Source: Candidatus Heimdallarchaeota archaeon (GTDB lineage: Archaea > Asgardarchaeota > Heimdallarchaeia > JABLTI01). Taken from it: DNA of 64,000 nucleotides. The stretch covers positions 81,670-145,669 of the forward strand of contig DXJV01000068.1 in NCBI GenBank assembly GCA_019056785.1. Reading direction: 5' to 3'. The notes under the pieces were generated by a model. The model was not told where the DNA came from, ran no database searches, and was given only the letters and a program-made list of their open reading frames with translations. The position numbers and the translations under genes were made by a program. The stretch's first letter is position 1; each line of letters opens with the position of its first letter. Below, in pieces: positions 1-56,863 of the stretch.

Positions 1-1
1 G

Positions 2-178
2 GAGATTGCCGAGATTTTAGGGGTAGATGCGGTTATTTATAACACTGTTCCTTTGCTGGTAGACTCTATCGGTTTTGATAAATGGCCCGAAAATAAGAAC
101 CTCTGTCTGGCATGTTTAACGGGGGAATATCCCATAGATGCACCCATTTCGAAAGCGCTGCACCAACGAGAGTCTTAA
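2..178 (+). CDS. purF: Amidophosphoribosyltransferase, C-terminal fragment (gene starts before window)
   Basis: Frame 2 reads EIAEILGVDAVIYNTVPLLVDSIGFDKWPENKNLCLACLTGEYPIDAPISKALHQRES*; CxACxxGxYP is the PurF C-terminal motif; purM lies 5.6 kb downstream. Confidence 0.85.
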   Translation, partial: EIAEILGVDAVIYNTVPLLVDSIGFDKWPENKNLCLACLTGEYPIDAPISKALHQRES

Positions 179-253
179 GGAGAGCAATTATGTGGCAATT
201 TTTGAAACTATAGAAAGCCCCTTGAGATTTTTTTCCAAGAAAAATAGTTTATA

Positions 254-279
254 AACTGTTGCGAGAGATTGTTTATAAT
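254..279 (+). promoter_or_regulatory. Putative BRE/TATA promoter of module copy 1
   Basis: AACTGTTGCGAGAGATTGTTTATAAT is 21/26 identical to 2627-2652 upstream of the paralogous gene. Confidence 0.55.
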
Positions 280-331
280 CTTTCAAAAGCATTTAATATA
301 TAGAATTAATACTGAGGTTAGAGTTAAAGCT

Positions 332-1321
332 ATGTCAAAAAAAAGAATGACTGCCTATTATACAATCTTTCTTATTGTAAATCTAGTTATCTTATCTATA
401 ATACCAATACACACTAATGGAAGTGCGTTCATTAGTGTTCATACTAGCTTTGATAGGATCTCTATTACCTCTTCAAAAATGGCGTTCATTATTAATAATT
501 TTCGACCTCAATTCACTTGGTGGCATGATAATGTGAGTGCTCCCGATGAGATTTTTAATGTTTTTTTTTTGGGATTGTATGAATATTTTGGCCCGGATGA
601 CTATTTATCTGGCACCGGTGAATTGGGAGGGTTAAGTTACAATTTGGACACGAGCAACTGGGAGTATAAAATCACTGAAACGGTTTCCGAGGTTAAGGTC
701 AATTTAACGCTCACGGGATTGGCAAATGATGCTTCACTCTCATTTATAATTCACATTTCCGAGCAGGAGCGAGCTTTAACATATACCGGTTATTACATTG
801 CTGCATTTACTGAAGCATGGCTTGAAATTATTATCAATAATTGGAAGTTAACACCCGGCGCGAAGGGCGTTGCAATAAAATCTGAAGTATTCGAATCCGC
901 AAATACTTTTGGAACAACTGTTGTTAATGATAGCTCTCAAACAATGAATAATCTTGATTCGTTGTATTTTATTAGTTTCCCGGGGACAGCAATTGACAAA
1001 GCTTACTTCAAGTGGGTTATGCTTGCTGATTATTTCAATGAAACGAACGACTTCTTAATAGCTAAATACCTTGGAAAAGCCTTCTTTAATAACACCTATG
1101 ACCCGGAATATGCCACTGCAACTCACCTCTGGCTTTCGTATCCAAAAGTTAGCACCATCCTGACAATTAAGCATAATACGATCTTAGGAGTGTATAAAAC
1201 AACACCTAGCCCAAGTTATAATGTCGGTGTACCACTAGCCTTTGTAGCCGGACTTACGAGCACAATTTTCATTCTTTTAATTGTTAGAAGGAAATGTCGT
1301 ACAGAAAAATTGCCTTTTTAA
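332..1321 (+). CDS. Secreted, C-terminally membrane-anchored beta-rich protein (paralog of 2739-3698)
   Basis: N-terminal signal/TM, C-terminal TM plus RRK; shares PxFxWW..N.S..DEI, EYFG.D..L....ELGG and IIxxNW blocks with 2739-3698; ATG 332 preceded by GAGGT is preferred over TTG 269. Confidence 0.75.
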   Translation: MSKKRMTAYYTIFLIVNLVILSIIPIHTNGSAFISVHTSFDRISITSSKMAFIINNFRPQFTWWHDNVSAPDEIFNVFFLGLYEYFGPDDYLSGTGELGGLSYNLDTSNWEYKITETVSEVKVNLTLTGLANDASLSFIIHISEQERALTYTGYYIAAFTEAWLEIIINNWKLTPGAKGVAIKSEVFESANTFGTTVVNDSSQTMNNLDSLYFISFPGTAIDKAYFKWVMLADYFNETNDFLIAKYLGKAFFNNTYDPEYATATHLWLSYPKVSTILTIKHNTILGVYKTTPSPSYNVGVPLAFVAGLTSTIFILLIVRRKCRTEKLPF

Positions 1322-1369
1322 CCTTTTTTTCTTTAGAGACATTATCCTTTTAAGTTATCTTTTAGTAAT

Positions 1370-2560
1370 ATGAATAGAGAAAAAGTAAGAACCGTTACGA
1401 GTTATTTGGAGTTAAAACTGTTGGTGGGAATCATTAAACAGAAACCTCATTTGACTTTTGCTCTCCTGCTTGTTCTATTTTGTACAATGGTTTTCGTTGA
1501 GTTTTATCAACACCCCCTGCAATCAACAGCTGCAGCAGAAACGCCCCCTATAATTATCAACAATCCTTCCCTCGAAGTAATTCAGGGACATTTTATACTC
1601 TATCATACAATGGGACTCAAAATCCAAAATGATTATTCCTTACAAGTCATTTCAACACTTGTTGTCGAAAATAATGATTCTCAACCGATTGATTTTTTCA
1701 TTTTTCTTATTAATAAATCAGTCAATACCGTTTTTGTGTATGACCCAATTGGCCCATTGAGTTTTACATGGACAAAAAATGATGCTACTCACTCGAGTGC
1801 CCTAAATATTTCCATGCGCTATCCCCTATTAGAAGATGACAAATACGTCCTTTCAATCTCCTATGAAATTGATCCAAGTGCACAAGCCACTTATTTGTTT
1901 TTCATCTCGGATTTTGGTGGTTACTACAATCTGGAATTTCCTCTAATACATTCCATTCGAACAGAACATTTTCAGTTGGAAATTTCTTTGCCGGGAGGGC
2001 ATCTCTTACTCTCGGGCCCTTCTCCCCGTCCTGTTTTCCCCTATCCCACAAAAATAGACATTGTAGACAACCATGTTAAATTGATTTGGATTTACAACTC
2101 AATTGACCTTAATTATGATTATTCCTACTTTGTCAGATTCAATAAAACTGCTTTAGGGACTGCACCTGTTATTTATATACAACTTCCCAAAGCCTTCTTT
2201 GCTTACTTAACCCTAAGTTTCCTCCTGGGAACCATTGCCAGTGGCACAATTTTCTATTTTATTCTAAAGAAGCGCGTCCAACCAACAAAAACCAAATTAG
2301 TCAGTTCGCTGTTATCAGAAGCCGAACAAGCAGTAATTCAAGCAATTAATGAGGAGGGGGGAATGTCCATCCAACGAAAAATCTGTGAACGAACCGGCTT
2401 TTCTAAGTCTAAAGTCTCACAAATTTTGCTCAAACTTGAAGAAAAAGATGTTCTAAAGCGTGAACGGTGGGGGCGAACAAACCGCGTTACCATCACCAAT
2501 CCTTCCTTCCTTAAAATTGATTTGAATGCCAAGGAACAAGTGAAAGAAGAACAATCTTAG
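1370..2560 (+). CDS. Membrane-anchored protein with extracellular domain, TM helix and C-terminal winged-helix DNA-binding domain (COG2512-like)
   Basis: TM followed by LSEAEQAVIQAINEEGGMSIQRKICERTGFSKSKVSQILLKLEEKDVLKRERWGRTNRV (MarR-like wHTH). Confidence 0.8.
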   Translation: MNREKVRTVTSYLELKLLVGIIKQKPHLTFALLLVLFCTMVFVEFYQHPLQSTAAAETPPIIINNPSLEVIQGHFILYHTMGLKIQNDYSLQVISTLVVENNDSQPIDFFIFLINKSVNTVFVYDPIGPLSFTWTKNDATHSSALNISMRYPLLEDDKYVLSISYEIDPSAQATYLFFISDFGGYYNLEFPLIHSIRTEHFQLEISLPGGHLLLSGPSPRPVFPYPTKIDIVDNHVKLIWIYNSIDLNYDYSYFVRFNKTALGTAPVIYIQLPKAFFAYLTLSFLLGTIASGTIFYFILKKRVQPTKTKLVSSLLSEAEQAVIQAINEEGGMSIQRKICERTGFSKSKVSQILLKLEEKDVLKRERWGRTNRVTITNPSFLKIDLNAKEQVKEEQS

Positions 2561-47200: not shown

Positions 47201-48064
47201 ATGCGAATTGGTTTTGGCTTGGAACCGATCAAAGGCCTTTCGATAGACTTGATCATTTATTTATTGCGGAAAATTCTCCTCGAGCATTTTGAATTTAATT
47301 GGCGTATCATCCCAAAAGTCGACCTTGTATTGAAAAGCTTGGGAAGCGCCACCACTACTTTTCATCTCCCCATTTACAACCGTGATGGGTTTGATTTTTC
47401 ATCAATAAATACGCGTTACGAGATTCAAATATCTGAAGTTATTTCTTTCGTTAATCAACGGAAAGATGATTTGAACATGATATTTGTTCTTGCTCATGCT
47501 CCAGAAGATCCAAATCATTCTTATAAGCTTATGTTTCAGCGTCTGGCACAAATTAACGCTCCAATCGTCCTCGAAAATGTTGCCGGACAATCTGAAGAAT
47601 ACTTCTTGGACTTCTATCGTCAAGCAAAAGACTTTCTGGGGGCTCATCTTGCTGGTTTTGCTCTTGACATCTCTCATCGGTTTGTTACTGACCCTGAGAA
47701 TTGGTTGAATATCCCGGAAGAATTAAAGGAAGATATCGCTTATGTCCACATTTCTGATTGTACAAAAACAGAAGACCTCCATTTGCCTTTAGGGTTTGGG
47801 GAGCTGCCTTACAATGAATTTTTCGCTTTCCTAAAAGAGATTGGCTATAATGGGGTGATTAATCAAGAACTAAAACCAAATGGCGATCAAGCTGAAGCAA
47901 TTATGTCCTCGAGTCAGTTATGTATTAAACCTTTTTCCAAGACGAAATATCTGCGCATGAAATTCAGGGGCGCTATAATGCGTCTAATTTTAAAACGTCG
48001 CCGAAAGGATTTTACGGAAGTTATTGGCCGCACTGCTGATGAAATTGGTTATGATTTTGTATAG
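47201..48064 (+). CDS. Sugar-phosphate isomerase/AP-endonuclease-2 TIM-barrel protein (paralog of 56027-56863)
   Basis: TTFHLP, AHAPE, VLEN, LDISH, VHISD..DLHLPLG.G, NQE. Confidence 0.85.
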   Translation: MRIGFGLEPIKGLSIDLIIYLLRKILLEHFEFNWRIIPKVDLVLKSLGSATTTFHLPIYNRDGFDFSSINTRYEIQISEVISFVNQRKDDLNMIFVLAHAPEDPNHSYKLMFQRLAQINAPIVLENVAGQSEEYFLDFYRQAKDFLGAHLAGFALDISHRFVTDPENWLNIPEELKEDIAYVHISDCTKTEDLHLPLGFGELPYNEFFAFLKEIGYNGVINQELKPNGDQAEAIMSSSQLCIKPFSKTKYLRMKFRGAIMRLILKRRRKDFTEVIGRTADEIGYDFV

Positions 48065-48089: not shown

Positions 48090-49424
48090 TCAGACTTCAA
48101 ATGCTCTGTGAATCCGAATGAGTTTTCCAGAAAAACGGTTTTTTATCGGCGCTTCAAATCGCACTTCAACCCGAGGTGTTCGGCATTTATAACTGTTAAA
48201 AACTCGTGCAATGTTTTTTTGGAGTGTTTCAGCTAATTCCTCATTCTTCATCTCTTTCCTCTGGAGGAGAACCCTTACAACCACTTTAGTCGGGCTTTTT
48301 TGAACAGCTTGATATTCTTCAATGTGTTCTGAACTTATGATTATTGCTCGTCGAATATAGTCAGGAAAGATATACTGTAATTCATTAGTGTCTTTTCTCT
48401 CGCCCCAGAACATGTCGTCCGCTCGCCCCATGATGTGTTCTATCACTCGAAATGATGAGCCACAAGAGCATTTTTCAAGAGAAAGGGTGATAATATCATT
48501 CAACTCGAATCGTACAATTGGTTGTGAGGTTTTGTGCAAGTCAGTGACAACAGATTGAAAACAGGGTGTGCCTGCAGGTGTTTCTGTTCCATCCTTATTA
48601 AGGAGTTGTAATTTCACCAAGTCTTCATTGATATGTAACGAGCCTGCCTTACAAGTAAGTCCTAATGCCCCTTCACTTGCCTGGTAAATTTGATGTATTG
48701 GTGTACGAAATATCTCTTCCAGTTCCGTCTTGATCTCCGGCTCAAGAACTTCGGCATAGGAAACAACACGTTTCGGTTGAATGGACAGTCTTTCCTCTTG
48801 AATTTCTCTTGCAAGGATTTTCAACATAGAGGGAGGAGCAGATAAGATATTTGGTTGAAAAGACTCAAGCCGCCGGCGAAGAACCTCTAATGGAAGCTTT
48901 AGGCTGAAATGAGTCAGCTGTTGCCCGAACTTTTTTACTTGAAAGGCCGGGGTGGTGATTCTGAGGAGAAATGCCCAACGCATTCGAAGAACCCGTGGAA
49001 AGCTAAAGCGTGCAAAAAATGCTGCTTGGAGGTATTTTTCCTCGGCAGGACTTGTAATAACTATTCCCCGATTGCCGCTCGTGCCGGAAGAGAGGGCAAC
49101 ATTAAAACCCTTTAATCGTTCACCATAGCGCTCCTCCTTTTCAACGCGAGTGGTAAATGCCAGGAGCTCTTCTTTTGTTAATCCAACAGTATTGTAGGTG
49201 GTCAAATTCTCCATCATGACCTTTTTATTAACAGTTGGCAGAGCCCAGACAGCAGAAAGATCCACCCTTCGATAAAGTTCTCTGAAAAAAACTGATTTAG
49301 AAACAATGAACTTTACAACCCTCTGTGCTTCCTTTAATTGATAGCCTGCGATCTTCTCGGGAGAAAATCTCTTGAAACGTCTTTTACAGCCAATGAAAAA
49401 GCGGAGAAAAGAATTCGTTTCCAT
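48090..49424 (-). CDS. F390 synthetase/phenylacetate-CoA ligase-like adenylate-forming enzyme
   Basis: LSSGTSGNRG, YAEVLE, IYQASEG, VRFELND, GRADD. Confidence 0.85.
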   Translation of the reverse strand: METNSFLRFFIGCKRRFKRFSPEKIAGYQLKEAQRVVKFIVSKSVFFRELYRRVDLSAVWALPTVNKKVMMENLTTYNTVGLTKEELLAFTTRVEKEERYGERLKGFNVALSSGTSGNRGIVITSPAEEKYLQAAFFARFSFPRVLRMRWAFLLRITTPAFQVKKFGQQLTHFSLKLPLEVLRRRLESFQPNILSAPPSMLKILAREIQEERLSIQPKRVVSYAEVLEPEIKTELEEIFRTPIHQIYQASEGALGLTCKAGSLHINEDLVKLQLLNKDGTETPAGTPCFQSVVTDLHKTSQPIVRFELNDIITLSLEKCSCGSSFRVIEHIMGRADDMFWGERKDTNELQYIFPDYIRRAIIISSEHIEEYQAVQKSPTKVVVRVLLQRKEMKNEELAETLQKNIARVFNSYKCRTPRVEVRFEAPIKNRFSGKLIRIHRAFEV

Positions 49425-49754: not shown

Positions 49755-49913
49755 ATGAGTAGATATGGTAACTACAGCAGACCACCCCGAGAAATGTATA
49801 AAGTAACTTGCGCTGATTGTGGTATTGAAACAGAAGTTCCTTTCAAGCCTGATGGTGAACGACCTGTTTACTGCCAAGAATGTTACAGAAAACGAAAACC
49901 AAGAAGATATTAG
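49755..49913 (+). CDS. CxxC-x17-CxxC small zinc-binding protein, 52 aa (absent from ORF track)
   Basis: Manual translation MSRYGNYSRPPREMYKVTCADCGIETEVPFKPDGERPVYCQECYRKRKPRRY*; SD GGTGA at 49741. Confidence 0.92.
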   Translation: MSRYGNYSRPPREMYKVTCADCGIETEVPFKPDGERPVYCQECYRKRKPRRY

Positions 49914-50203
49914 GTAAACGCCTAAAATTTATCTAGTATTTTTTCATTCCTAGTGAAAATCATAACTTCATCTCGAATGTTGGTTTTCACTTCTTTTTTA
50001 ATTTTAGATTTTTCTCATTTTTTCAATAGAGCTGACCTTTTGCTAGCCTTCAGTGAATCTTCCTTTAAAACCGACATTTTACTTGGCCATTGCTGATGAT
50101 CCTAAAAAAGAAATAGTGAAAGGAGGAGTGTGATATTCTTACAGGGACTCCTCAATTGTTTTTGCCCTCTCAAAGCAAAATTCCTACCACAATCAATCCG
50201 TAA

Positions 50204-50341
50204 CTATTGACCATCATCGCCAATAGGCCCTGGTTCAACAGTTGGGTCTCCTCGTACTTCCTGGATGGCTGCTGTTCCTCCGATTAGGAGTCCTAGCAAC
50301 AATACTGCTAGACTAATAACTTTTGGGTTGATTTTCTTCAT
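50204..50341 (-). CDS. 45-aa secreted peptide precursor (absent from ORF track)
   Basis: Manual translation MKKINPKVISLAVLLLGLLIGGTAAIQEVRGDPTVEPGPIGDDGQ*; SD GGTGA 9 nt before ATG; TATAAAT upstream on the minus strand. Confidence 0.75.
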   Translation of the reverse strand: MKKINPKVISLAVLLLGLLIGGTAAIQEVRGDPTVEPGPIGDDGQ

Positions 50342-50396
50342 TTTTGTTTATCACCTTGCTACAGTTTTTTACATCACTTTTGTCGATGAATACCTC

Positions 50397-50424
50397 GATT
50401 ATGGGTAGTTGCGACTACATAATT
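50397..50424. promoter_or_regulatory. Imperfect palindrome abutting the TATA box of the peptide gene
   Basis: ATTATG-G-GTAGT-TGCG-ACTAC-ATAAT. Confidence 0.45.
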
Positions 50425-50667
50425 TATAGTCTCTTATTCCAAAATAATCTTTAGCTACTCCCATGGTGGCAATCTAATCGAAAAAAATCTTTGTTAAACG
50501 CTTTTAAAGTCAAAAAATCGCCATTAGATTGGGGTGCCCTTTTTTCTCGATTTTTGAGTTAGGAATTAGGAAAAAACATTAGATATTTATTTAAGTAAAG
50601 AGATTTTAATTAGCAAAAAAGAACAAATAAAAGACTGTCTCTCTATATATTATAAAGTGGGAACTCG

Positions 50668-52461
50668 ATGAAACATATTGATATCCAGAAATTAGCAGAA
50701 GATTTAGCTGTCCTTGAGACATTGGCTATAAAAGAGGTTGATCAAAGAGTTTCCATATTAAATGATTTACAAACAGTTTTTCAGAACAAGCTTAAAGCTT
50801 ATACAAAAAAGAAGCCACATTGGCCGCAACGAAGAATTGTCTTAGGGCAAGTTGAAGATAATATGGGAGTGCATTATGCGATTAAGAGAACCTCGACCAA
50901 AACCATTCTTGCAACATGGATCTTTAATTTGCAACCTAAAACACGTTTCTACTTGCTTTCTTTCTTCACAGCAAAAGAGGCCTTGCTCCCTTTTTTCGCT
51001 CAAATTCCAACTGAAGAAGAAGAGGCGATAATTAACATACTTGCGATTCTTCTTCTTAGAGAGATCTATCAAATTCAATCTTTAGAAAATCCTTTACTTT
51101 CAGCCATCCGCTCGAAAATTTATTCTGAATTAATAGCTAATATCAGTTATCTATTATGGGACAATATGCTGGTCATGCTGATTACAAAAAAAGTCCCTTT
51201 AATTGACGCCTTTTTAGAATTTGACAAACTTCTCAATTCAAAAGAGCAATTACTTCAAAGGAAGCGCTCATTCACTTCTAAGTTTATGGAATGGGTTAAT
51301 GAACGAACTATTACAGAACTAGATGCTATTCTCCCCCTTTTTATTCATTATAAATTGATTGAGCTGATAGAGAACTTTTTAGAGCTCGGGTATGAGCTTA
51401 GCTCGACTTCTTTTATTGCTCGTAAATTGAAACTCTCTCAGAAGACCGTTACTAACCGGTTCAAAGCATTAAATGAAAGCTATTCCACCTTTTGGCTCAC
51501 AGAAATTAATTTTGAGGAAATGAACTTACATAATTATTTTATCAAGATAACTCTCGCAAAAGAGAAATATCTCAAACCTTTGGCTACAAAACTGCTCGAA
51601 AATCCTTATATACAAAACATCTACACCGGCTTTGATTCAAATAGCGCTATAATCTATTCGCCCCGATTTATTTGCCCGCATATTGTCTCTGAACGGTTGC
51701 ATGAACATTTGCGAAAAATAGCTCGTGAGGGGATTGTCTCTGATTTTTCTGTGAGTTTAATTCGAGAGAAATATCGTTATTTTACTTTAAGTGAGCGTCC
51801 TATCACCTTGAAAAAGATCGCGCCCTTTGAACAAATGGTAAAAACTTTGGAACCTTCTTTAAGAAAGTATCTCTTTTCTCACATTAAACGGAGTTCGACT
51901 ATCCCTGAAAAAGACAAACCAGTCAATTTTGATTATAATCTTCTTTCCTTTCTTTCCATTATCAAAGGGAAATACCTTTTGCGAGCTCGCTATGCTGTTT
52001 GGATTAATGAATTCAAAGACTTTTATCTCCGGAACAAAATCTCTCCTACCAATGTCAAAGAGCAGATTAATTTACTCTATTACTATGAATTGCAGGCCAA
52101 AAAGAAAAAACTCATTAATTTTTCTCTCTACATTCGCTCGCTGATGAAACGAGCACCAAATGTCTTAATTATAGAGCTACCAACCTCTGATTTATCTAAT
52201 GAAGAACTAAATGCCGTTATTGACAAGCTGCGTATTCTTTCTTTTTTGGGGCAAGTTGATTTATATGACCGGCATCTCTTTCAAATTCTCGGTATTTCCC
52301 ATAGCCATCCTCTTGCAAAGAGCATTGAGCAATTCCTTGTCGATGAAGGGCTTTCACCAAGTCTTTATACCATTAAATTACAGAAAACAAAGTTTTTGCC
52401 ATTTCATGAGCTCTATGATTATGAAGAACAGAAATGGAAAATTGAAGGGATTTCTTTCTAA
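50668..52461 (+). CDS. Large regulator with internal HTH and Lrp/AsnC-like domains
   Basis: STSFIARKLKLSQKTVTNRFKAL HTH followed by INFEEMNLHNYFIKI..ENPYI Lrp-like pattern; degenerate second copy C-terminally. Confidence 0.65.
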   Translation: MKHIDIQKLAEDLAVLETLAIKEVDQRVSILNDLQTVFQNKLKAYTKKKPHWPQRRIVLGQVEDNMGVHYAIKRTSTKTILATWIFNLQPKTRFYLLSFFTAKEALLPFFAQIPTEEEEAIINILAILLLREIYQIQSLENPLLSAIRSKIYSELIANISYLLWDNMLVMLITKKVPLIDAFLEFDKLLNSKEQLLQRKRSFTSKFMEWVNERTITELDAILPLFIHYKLIELIENFLELGYELSSTSFIARKLKLSQKTVTNRFKALNESYSTFWLTEINFEEMNLHNYFIKITLAKEKYLKPLATKLLENPYIQNIYTGFDSNSAIIYSPRFICPHIVSERLHEHLRKIAREGIVSDFSVSLIREKYRYFTLSERPITLKKIAPFEQMVKTLEPSLRKYLFSHIKRSSTIPEKDKPVNFDYNLLSFLSIIKGKYLLRARYAVWINEFKDFYLRNKISPTNVKEQINLLYYYELQAKKKKLINFSLYIRSLMKRAPNVLIIELPTSDLSNEELNAVIDKLRILSFLGQVDLYDRHLFQILGISHSHPLAKSIEQFLVDEGLSPSLYTIKLQKTKFLPFHELYDYEEQKWKIEGISF

Positions 52462-56026: not shown

Positions 56027-56863
56027 TTATTTTTGTGTTGTGTGGGCGATTTTTCGCCGTAAAATTGGTTTTACAAAGGCATATCTTGTTTTCATTGCAA
56101 GAAATCGCCCTTTATTTGTATATTTTGCCACTTCAAGGCAGGAGTTCATAATCGCTACCAAATCCAATCCTTCTGGTTTGATCTCCTGATTAATCACCCC
56201 TTTATAGCCCAAGCGTTTTAAGAAGCGTAAAAAGTCCCAATAGGGCATTTCTCCTTGCCCCAACAGCAGGTGAGTGTCATTATCCTTTTTTGTATCTTGT
56301 AAATGAACATAAACAATTTCTTTTGCCAGTTCTGTTGGAACCGAAAGCCAATTGTCGTTGTCAGTCAAAAAGCGATGTGGACCATCAATAGCGTGCCCTG
56401 CGAGTTGCTTGCCAAGAAGATCCTTCGCTTTAAAATAAAAAGCAGTAAAAGTCTCGTCATCTTGCCAAGGAATATTTTCTAAAATTATTGGTGTTTGAAT
56501 TTGTTGTAATGTCTCAATAAGCACTTGGAAGTCAGCATCCGGCCCCTCAGGGGGATGAGCTAACGTAAAAAGTAATTGGAGGTCCTTGTGATAAGTGTTA
56601 ATAAAATCAACTACTTTTGTCATGCGTGTTCGCAAAGCAGCTTTTGTCGAACCCGGCTCAAAGCCATCAACACTTGGGATCGGCAAATGAAATGTTGTTG
56701 TTAATTTACCCAGATTCGCAATAATTCCCTCGACATCCTTCATACTATTAATATTGATCTCAACATGATCCAAAGCAATTGCTTTTGCAAAAGTAACCAA
56801 CTTGTCAGCAGAAATACCGGCATACGGTTCAATTGTCACACCAATTTTCAATGAGTTCACCAC
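56027..56863 (-). CDS. Sugar-phosphate isomerase/AP-endonuclease-2 TIM-barrel protein (paralog of 47201-48064)
   Basis: TTFHLP, AHPPE, ILEN, IDGPH, VHLQD..DTHL.LG.G, VINQE. Confidence 0.85.
   Translation of the reverse strand: MVNSLKIGVTIEPYAGISADKLVTFAKAIALDHVEININSMKDVEGIIANLGKLTTTFHLPIPSVDGFEPGSTKAALRTRMTKVVDFINTYHKDLQLLFTLAHPPEGPDADFQVLIETLQQIQTPIILENIPWQDDETFTAFYFKAKDLLGKQLAGHAIDGPHRFLTDNDNWLSVPTELAKEIVYVHLQDTKKDNDTHLLLGQGEMPYWDFLRFLKRLGYKGVINQEIKPEGLDLVAIMNSCLEVAKYTNKGRFLAMKTRYAFVKPILRRKIAHTTQK

Follow-up and report, generated by a model that had tools for sequence, protein, structure and literature searches.

Among described systems in which a short exported peptide is encoded next to its receptor, the RRNPP and Rgg/SHP pairs (PlcR/PapR, NprR/NprX, Rap/Phr, Rgg/SHP and AimR/AimP) are hosted by Bacillota and their phages. 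Signalling molecules of archaea include acyl-homoserine-lactone-like compounds and diketopiperazines, and we know of no peptide pheromone system in this domain. Here, we analysed two divergent genes of Candidatus Heimdallarchaeota archaeon (GenBank assembly GCA_019056785.1, contig DXJV01000068.1, positions 81,670 to 145,669 of the forward strand), a member of the Heimdall archaea, the group closest to eukaryotes. All coordinates refer to this stretch of 64,000 nucleotides, hereafter the window. One gene (50204–50341, minus strand, 45 codons plus stop) encodes a pre-peptide and the other (50668–52461, plus strand) a 597-residue protein, and the link between the peptide family and the regulator family to which they belong is firmly established. 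To the reading that the two form a cognate exported-peptide ligand and its receptor-regulator we give an even chance.

As in the RRNPP and Rgg systems, a short exported pro-peptide gene adjoins the gene of a (here putative) cytoplasmic helix-turn-helix (HTH) receptor, the pro-peptide putatively supplies the ligand with its C-terminal part, and several diverged pairs occur per genome, while the divergent gene arrangement resembles that of Rgg/SHP. In contrast to those systems, the larger protein carries no TPR domain and instead combines a putatively dead zincin-like domain with two Lrp/AsnC modules, and the host is an Asgard archaeon. Because the TPR domain is missing, the pair is not a member of the RRNPP or Rgg families; there is neither sequence nor fold homology, and the likeness is one of analogy only.

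A conserved pair of gene families

The homolog search covered 83 genomes of the class. The 597-residue protein matched all 12 genomes of one Heimdall family (f1), the window's own included, plus one further genome (G010), and the peptide profile matched exactly the same genomes, its weak matches elsewhere being signal peptides of large proteins. By our tally, 37 of the 48 peptide loci in these 13 genomes have a homolog of the big gene within about 1.2 kb and another 4 are at contig ends, with 2–6 pairs per genome. A profile scan of the fetched loci found an adjoining member of the peptide family for every full-length big gene of clades A–C (defined below), and the pairing is kept across divergent, tandem and convergent arrangements, the peptide gene and the big gene being the only two genes conserved across loci. 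The preliminary description of the window had treated regulator homologs without adjacent small open reading frames (ORFs) as evidence against a functional pair; nearly every full-length homolog of clades A–C proved to have such a neighbour. We concluded that the pairing of the two genes is real, old and maintained. A single-protein scan of genome contigs for close relatives gave no match, and no relative was detected in viral contigs with the one pattern used, whose sensitivity is limited.

The window's genome holds three paralogs of the big gene (contigs C98, C5 and C76) together with several relatives of the small ORF, one of them divergent from the C5 paralog and another convergent with the C76 paralog. 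The latter is of a type (clade C) whose two near-identical copies break the assembly of this genome (G000) at four contig ends (C5:21771–21908, C10:1–138, C66:4–147 and C76:1–111; loci L006, L007, L008 and L003), and a third, N-terminally degenerate copy is located at C10:6398–6517 (L042). The copies in G010 (contigs C25 and C58; L016 and L029) are nearly identical to those in a genome of the window's genus (L016 versus L022), and because of this near-identity they probably stem from a contig assigned to the wrong genome bin or from very recent transfer.

Judged by its conservation, the 45-amino-acid ORF is a real gene. Pairwise Nei–Gojobori estimates of pN/pS ranged from 0.07 to 0.84 and stayed below 1 in every pair, which indicates purifying selection, with synonymous sites near saturation; within clade A the signal part gave 0.28 and the tail 0.64. 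In the closest relative, the 45-codon gene was annotated by the Joint Genome Institute (JGI) gene caller, and several members of the family start with TTG or GTG. The ORF with its Shine–Dalgarno sequence and TATA box, as originally reported, was thereby confirmed: it is conserved as a protein, and so are its Shine–Dalgarno sequence and promoter region. In contigs of four metagenome runs, 0 differences were found in 50100–50341 and up to 18 in the big gene; as only about 2 would be expected in the small gene, this variation is uninformative for it.

The family shares an invariant N-terminus, M-K-K-x-(N/S)-P-K, which reads M-K-K-I-N-P-K in the window. Codons 1–25 (50267–50341, minus strand) encode a predicted Sec-type signal peptide with three lysines in the n-region, a hydrophobic core (about 15 residues, with GG at its end) and T-A-A before residue 26. 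In our reading of the alignment, small residues occupy positions −3 and −1 in the same column in approximately 24 of 27 members, and the maximum 15-residue hydropathy across the family is 2.3–2.9. Cleavage would accordingly be expected after about residue 25, leaving codons 26–45 (50207–50266, minus strand) as the acidic, Pro/Gly-rich putative mature peptide with a net charge of −4. The classical signal peptide first proposed (MKK, hydrophobic core, TAA site) is thus borne out by a Sec-like N-terminus across the family alignment. 'RGD' as a motif was abandoned, as the arginine is replaced by H, Y, L or F in orthologs. Three other classes of leader, judged by their general definitions, were likewise rejected: a lipoprotein signal, since the peptide has no cysteine; a type IV pilin-like signal, since no G or A stands at −1 after a basic stretch and a pilin would be much longer; and a double-glycine leader, since the N-terminus is hydrophobic and not amphipathic.

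A quick maximum-likelihood tree of 26 big proteins resolved clades A, C and D with 100% support in the SH-like approximate likelihood ratio test (SH-aLRT), whereas group B was paraphyletic with three subclades. Peptide tail type and gene orientation track these clades. Clade A peptides, encoded divergently, carry the tail G-D-P-T followed by an acidic stretch and G-G-G; clade B tails end in D-T-G-(I/L)-aromatic and their genes are divergent or lie in tandem upstream; and clade C tails read S-G-F-G-Q-G-D...G-G-G-G, with convergent genes and often a second copy upstream. The co-variation of peptide and regulator anticipated at the outset was therefore found, in that tail type and arrangement follow regulator clades A, B and C. 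Two clade D genes adjoin genes for secreted Tyr/Asp-rich proteins of 223–237 residues with peptide-like N-termini (L043, 516–1229, minus strand; L045, 3402–4073, plus strand), of which the L043 protein has a basic hydrophobic signal followed by a Gly-rich linker, A-P-P...G-G-G-G. As these N-termini resemble the peptide, the short peptides may derive from, or may have given rise to, the longer secreted partners, in which case both would share an origin.

The 597-residue protein and its modelled complex with the peptide tail

Pfam returned only weak HTH matches for the window protein (HTH_11, E 0.12; HTH_5, E 0.21) and NCBIfam none, while 16 of 34 members gave weak HTH matches, the best at E 3.7e-4 and below cut-off. 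PF01037 did not rank among the 25 families matched most frequently across the 34 members, the gathering thresholds for Lrp/AsnC were not reached, and a TPR domain was indicated by a single marginal Pfam match (TPR_CAND1 in 1 of 34 members, E 0.018). An AlphaFold2 model computed with 34 homologs reached a predicted local distance difference test score (pLDDT) of 87.8 and a predicted template modelling score (pTM) of 0.79. Its best Foldseek match was the siroheme decarboxylase NirDL (4ch7; E 9.5e-8 over approximately 380 columns, TM score 0.52 normalised by target), and more than 20 Lrp/AsnC structures were matched with probabilities of 0.95–1.0. The family profile searched against PDB matched Pyrococcus LrpA (1i1g) at E 0.0016 over residues 242–321. 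A profile search of 1.84 billion representatives yielded 149 matches, about 65 of them full-length (560–620 residues), with a weak outgroup of roughly 300-residue proteins containing two HTH_AsnC plus AsnC_trans_reg units; an ESM Atlas feature search, used as a lead only, returned archaeal multi-domain HTH_AsnC proteins with scores of only 0.79 or below.

On the basis of the Foldseek matches, the LrpA profile match and the remote tandem HTH_AsnC relatives, residues 226–597 were assigned as a diverged tandem Lrp/AsnC module. The first unit (residues 226–378; 51343–51801, plus strand) consists of a winged HTH (wHTH) and RAM domain 1, which has a nearly invariant C-P-H motif and an invariant Y330; the second (residues 379–597; 51802–52458, plus strand) comprises a linker, a degenerate second wHTH and RAM domain 2. 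The HTH and Lrp/AsnC-like domains named in the preliminary description thus hold at the level of fold and are refined to two wHTH-RAM modules, and the suggestion that the receptor fold would differ from the bacterial TPR/RRNPP type agrees with the Lrp/AsnC-like fold seen here. The first wHTH is likely the DNA-binding unit; its recognition helix is nearly invariant in clade A and different in clades B and C. No membrane-like segment was found in the big protein, its maximum 19-residue hydropathy being 1.48.

The N-terminal domain (residues 1–225; 50668–51342, plus strand), described earlier simply as helical, can tentatively be specified further as zincin-like (gluzincin-type) without zinc ligands. 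Modelled alone, it gave a pLDDT of 89.8, and about 45 of its top 50 VIA matches were zincin catalytic domains, including M1 aminopeptidases, thermolysin, DPP III, BepA and minigluzincins, at modest Z scores of 4.0–7.8; Foldseek added weak minigluzincin matches (E >0.6). All 32 aligned sequences have (K/R)-E-x-x-(L/F/I) in the helix at the HEXXH position, with K-E-x-x-L in the window protein, and an invariant N123 lies near the position of the third ligand. If the zincin fold is correctly assigned, the domain would be catalytically dead, as the zinc ligands are lost. The big protein represents a new architecture based on the Lrp/AsnC fold, and with it two families undescribed in Pfam and NCBIfam are defined, the peptide of about 45 and the regulator of about 590 amino acids.

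Several described families share part of this architecture. With Lrp/AsnC proteins (also called FFRP, e.g. LrpA (1i1g), PH1519/FL11 (2e1c) and ST1022 (2efq)) the regulator shares the wHTH plus RAM fold, the effector site at the RAM-RAM interface, the Lrp-type HTH sequence pattern and a remote homology detectable by profile. It differs from these single modules of about 150 residues, which form dimers or octamers and bind free amino acids, in its 597 residues, in the fusion of two modules in one chain with a degenerate second HTH, in the extra N-domain of 225 residues, in scoring below all Pfam thresholds and in its predicted ligand, a peptide tail instead of a free amino acid. NirDL and AhbA-AhbB (4ch7, 4czc) also consist of tandem Lrp-like modules that hold a large ligand between domains; however, sequence identity to NirDL is 11%, the NirdL-like_HTH Pfam family is not matched, no haem or d1 biosynthesis genes lie nearby, and NirDL is an enzyme without the N-domain. 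The order of zincin-like domain, HTH and small-ligand-binding domain recalls IrrE/PprI and ImmA-type proteins, as known from the IrrE structure. In contrast to these, HEXXH is lost in all members, so that no proteolysis is expected; IrrE is not among the top structural matches, and its sensor domain is GAF-like where RAM domains are found here. Zincin (gluzincin) metallopeptidases are likewise set apart by HEXXH and a third zinc ligand, neither of which occurs in this family.

The structure prediction of peptide with regulator that had been recommended initially put the tail into the inter-RAM cleft. The complex scored an ipSAE of 0.61 (0.65, 0.61 and 0.59 in individual runs) versus 0.00 for the best of three controls, and the runs agreed in at least 80% of contacts. 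In the model, the last 13 residues of the peptide (33–45) occupy the cleft between the RAM1 and RAM2 sheets and touch the second wHTH, the final three residues lying deepest, between RAM1 (positions 319, 330, 332, 368 and 370) and RAM2 (499, 501, 526–530, 539, 541 and 569–574). The regulator contributes the stretches 433–446 (the wing of the degenerate second wHTH), 463–470, 490–501, 526–541 and 569–574. As we know of no solved Lrp-peptide complex, the model is unlikely to reproduce a known structure. The prediction supports a tail bound between the RAM domains, the position at which Lrp-family effectors bind.

Interface residues differ between clades. At position 370, clade A carries R, clade B H and clade C F or Y; at position 441, R is found in A and mostly in B, and a hydrophobic or aromatic residue (L, Y, I or H) in C; position 490 is R in A and B and S or T in C; and position 317 is S in A and B and E in C. 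The net interface charge amounts to +4.2 in clade A, +3.3 in B and +1.2 in C, and the mean tail charge to −4.25, −3.8 and −0.9, respectively. Cleft charge suggestively tracks tail charge across the three clades.

Candidate regulatory DNA and gene neighbourhood

The intergenic region was aligned over eight orthologous clade A loci, with the closest relative (L050) aligned separately to the window. Within the 5' untranslated region (UTR) and promoter of the peptide gene (50342–50440, minus strand), the Shine–Dalgarno sequence GGTGAT (plus-strand ATCACC, 50350–50355, 8 nt before the ATG) and the TG(C/T)GA(C/G)TA-TATA region, which includes the TATA-like box (50420–50429, minus strand), are conserved in the eight loci and in L050. 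Towards the big gene, a block consisting of TAGGAATTAGG (50560–50570), 8 nt and TTAGATATTTATTTAAGTAAA (50579–50599) on the plus strand is invariant in the eight clade A loci at a distance where coding synonymous sites are saturated, and it is also present in L050. It precedes the ATG of the big gene by 70–110 nt, the window copy is the only exact one in its genome, and the block is restricted to clade A loci, which parallels the clade-specific recognition helix of the first wHTH. Based on this conservation, 50560–50599 may serve the regulator as an operator or upstream activating site, together with a promoter element.

All repeats and hairpins of the preliminary description, as well as the divergent 597-residue gene, are present in the window. 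The exact 9-nt inverted repeat CAATCTAAT/ATTAGATTG (50470–50478 and 50523–50531) and the palindrome GTAGT-TGCG-ACTAC (50405–50418) that abuts the TATA-like box are not conserved in orthologous loci, and both were rejected as operators. Of the two hairpins in the conserved, structured 3' UTR of the peptide gene (50118–50203, minus strand), GAGGAGT/ACTCCTC (50123–50129 and 50147–50153) is kept in all nine aligned orthologous loci (window, L009–L015 and L050), whereas TTTTGC/GCAAAA (50160–50165 and 50175–50180) occurs only in the window and its closest relative. RNAalifold predicted 17 pairs for this region, compensatory changes occur in 3 pairs of the conserved hairpin, and this hairpin with the T-run 3' of it looks like the terminator of a monocistronic transcript. 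The unpaired motifs GTGG(G)TA and GAGAGGG(C/T)AAA 5' of the hairpin are invariant and conserved as well as the coding region; they might serve as an RNA processing, stability or protein-binding site. No known RNA families or tRNAs were found around the locus.

For clade C, a palindrome TGCAC-N5-GTGCA lies about 95–110 nt upstream of several peptide genes (L029, L030 and L020), and a further palindrome, TTCCGGAA, abuts the TATA-like box of the regulator genes; both may be operators. A k-mer scan upstream of clade C genes detected no motif common to at least 6 loci.

The neighbours of the pair in the window encode proteins of TIM-barrel, PlsY-like and solute-binding type as well as an APH kinase. 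The stretch from the TIM-barrel gene to the peptide gene contains a 444-amino-acid ORF without Pfam match (48090–49424, minus strand) and a gene for a 52-residue treble-clef zinc-finger protein (49755–49913, plus strand; PF23477, E 1.2e-20), both missing at the equivalent position in L050. In other genomes (L011–L014 and L034), an AP_endonuc_2 (xylose-isomerase-like TIM-barrel) gene is located directly 3' of the clade A regulator, whereas in the window and L050 the ortholog is found on the upstream side of the peptide gene, with a second, convergent paralog further downstream (window genes 47201–48064 and 56027–56863); this difference in position indicates that the locus was rearranged. L050 also contains a YcaO-family gene (1–1795, plus strand) about 2 kb from the peptide gene.

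Proposed mechanism, alternatives and implications

In the ligand-receptor reading, the small gene would yield a pre-peptide that is exported by the Sec pathway and cut by signal peptidase after about residue 25, releasing an acidic peptide of approximately 20 residues. The divergent gene would provide a soluble cytoplasmic regulator composed of the dead zincin-like domain and two fused Lrp/AsnC modules. As this modelled receptor is cytoplasmic and the peptide exported, the peptide, once released, would need to re-enter the cell, for instance through an Opp-type transporter, and the system would then work like bacterial RRNPP or Rgg/SHP signalling; the genome encodes at least 10 Opp/Dpp-type binding proteins, which is a prerequisite for re-import and not evidence of uptake. 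Binding of the C-terminal tail in the cleft between the RAM domains would alter the contact of the first winged helix with the invariant block at 50560–50599 and thereby determine transcription of both genes and perhaps of others. What we infer here is that the peptide is exported, cleaved, released and imported again, that the regulator binds DNA, and in which direction regulation runs. Of the peptide-sensing analogue on a different receptor fold that was originally envisaged, the pairing, the non-TPR fold and the modelled tail binding stand, whereas the inverted repeats proposed as operators do not.

A number of observations weigh against this ligand-receptor reading. The uncharged stretch of about 19–20 residues in the peptide (V8 to I26 or Q27) is long enough for an uncleaved membrane anchor, and in that case the tail would be outside and beyond reach of a cytoplasmic receptor. 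In the complex model, the pLDDT of the partner is low (46–56), and the calibration of the ipSAE mark, which 58 of 80 solved complexes and 2 of 110 mismatched pairs attained, holds only roughly here, as own alignments were used. The best structural match of the big protein, NirDL, is an enzyme and not a regulator. About 7 of the 48 peptide genes are orphans, and clade D big genes as well as the deeper relatives P0086 and P0090 have no small peptide nearby, so that the regulator family does not need a short peptide. The co-variation of tail and receptor rests on three or four clades only and could be produced by co-duplication of neighbouring genes without any binding. Finally, as the genome has only this one copy of the block, there is no sign of a regulon extending past the pair.

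Some of these points lend themselves to a purely local function, in which the 597-residue protein controls its neighbour, the exported peptide acts as an extracellular or envelope effector without feedback (e.g. in surface modification, adhesion, metal binding or antagonism), and the RAM cleft senses another small molecule. Lrp-type regulators commonly control adjacent divergent genes, and the operator-like block unique to the locus, the orphan peptide genes and the clade D regulators next to longer secreted proteins, which amount to a regulator plus a secreted product, would all be accommodated. However, the tail sits in the effector cleft in the complex model while the controls score 0.00, the charge of the cleft tracks that of the tail across clades, and a dedicated regulator of 600 residues for a 45-codon gene, maintained through at least three paralogous lineages and three arrangements, would be unusual. 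We consider this local function unlikely. In a further alternative, the small gene may encode an uncleaved membrane micro-protein with its N-terminus inside and its tail outside, for example a small subunit or modulator of a membrane complex, that is linked to the regulator by co-regulation only. Approximately 19–20 uncharged residues can span a membrane, and three N-terminal lysines together with an acidic tail fit the positive-inside rule; yet the core is followed by a helix-breaking GG and a small-x-small site in the same column of about 24 of 27 members, and the tail, which this explanation leaves outside, is the clade-specific part that the model docks into the receptor. A membrane micro-protein is in our view very unlikely.

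Alternatively, the big protein could act before export as a cytoplasmic handling factor that holds the pre-peptide, be it as a chaperone, as a scaffold for maturation or to sense precursor that has not been exported, with the degenerate second winged helix resembling the recognition element (RRE) of ribosomally synthesized and post-translationally modified peptide (RiPP) systems and the dead zincin domain serving as a peptide clamp. The modelled interface does include the wing of the second wHTH (433–446), much as an RRE holds leader peptides, the fold of the N-domain appears peptidase-like, the N-terminal heptad M-K-K-x-N-P-K is invariant beyond the needs of a signal peptide, and the YcaO gene of the closest relative lies in the vicinity. 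Unlike RiPP systems with an RRE maturase, however, the pair has no conserved companion among modifying enzymes, proteases or transporters, and YcaO is absent from the window and from all loci except that of the one relative. The loss of the zinc ligands in all members and the modelled contact with the tail instead of the N-terminal region also speak against handling, as does the first wHTH, which keeps an Lrp-type, clade-specific recognition helix matched by a clade-specific DNA block. Overall, we regard a handling factor as quite unlikely.

Full-text searching of the literature found no description of the pair or of archaeal peptide signalling. The broader claim, that Heimdall archaea harbour the first peptide-based cell-cell signalling in Archaea, with a receptor class independent of the bacterial TPR receptors and several pherotype-like pairs per genome, is put forward tentatively, at somewhat less than an even chance. 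If true, cell-cell communication in Heimdall archaea would be opened to direct testing, and the compact two-gene module with its defined operator candidate would be usable as a tool. Peptide sensing could then be built on the effector cleft of the Lrp/AsnC fold, which would add a new class of ligand to a regulator fold that is among the most widespread in archaea. Even without signalling, the two newly defined families and the firm link between them would remain.

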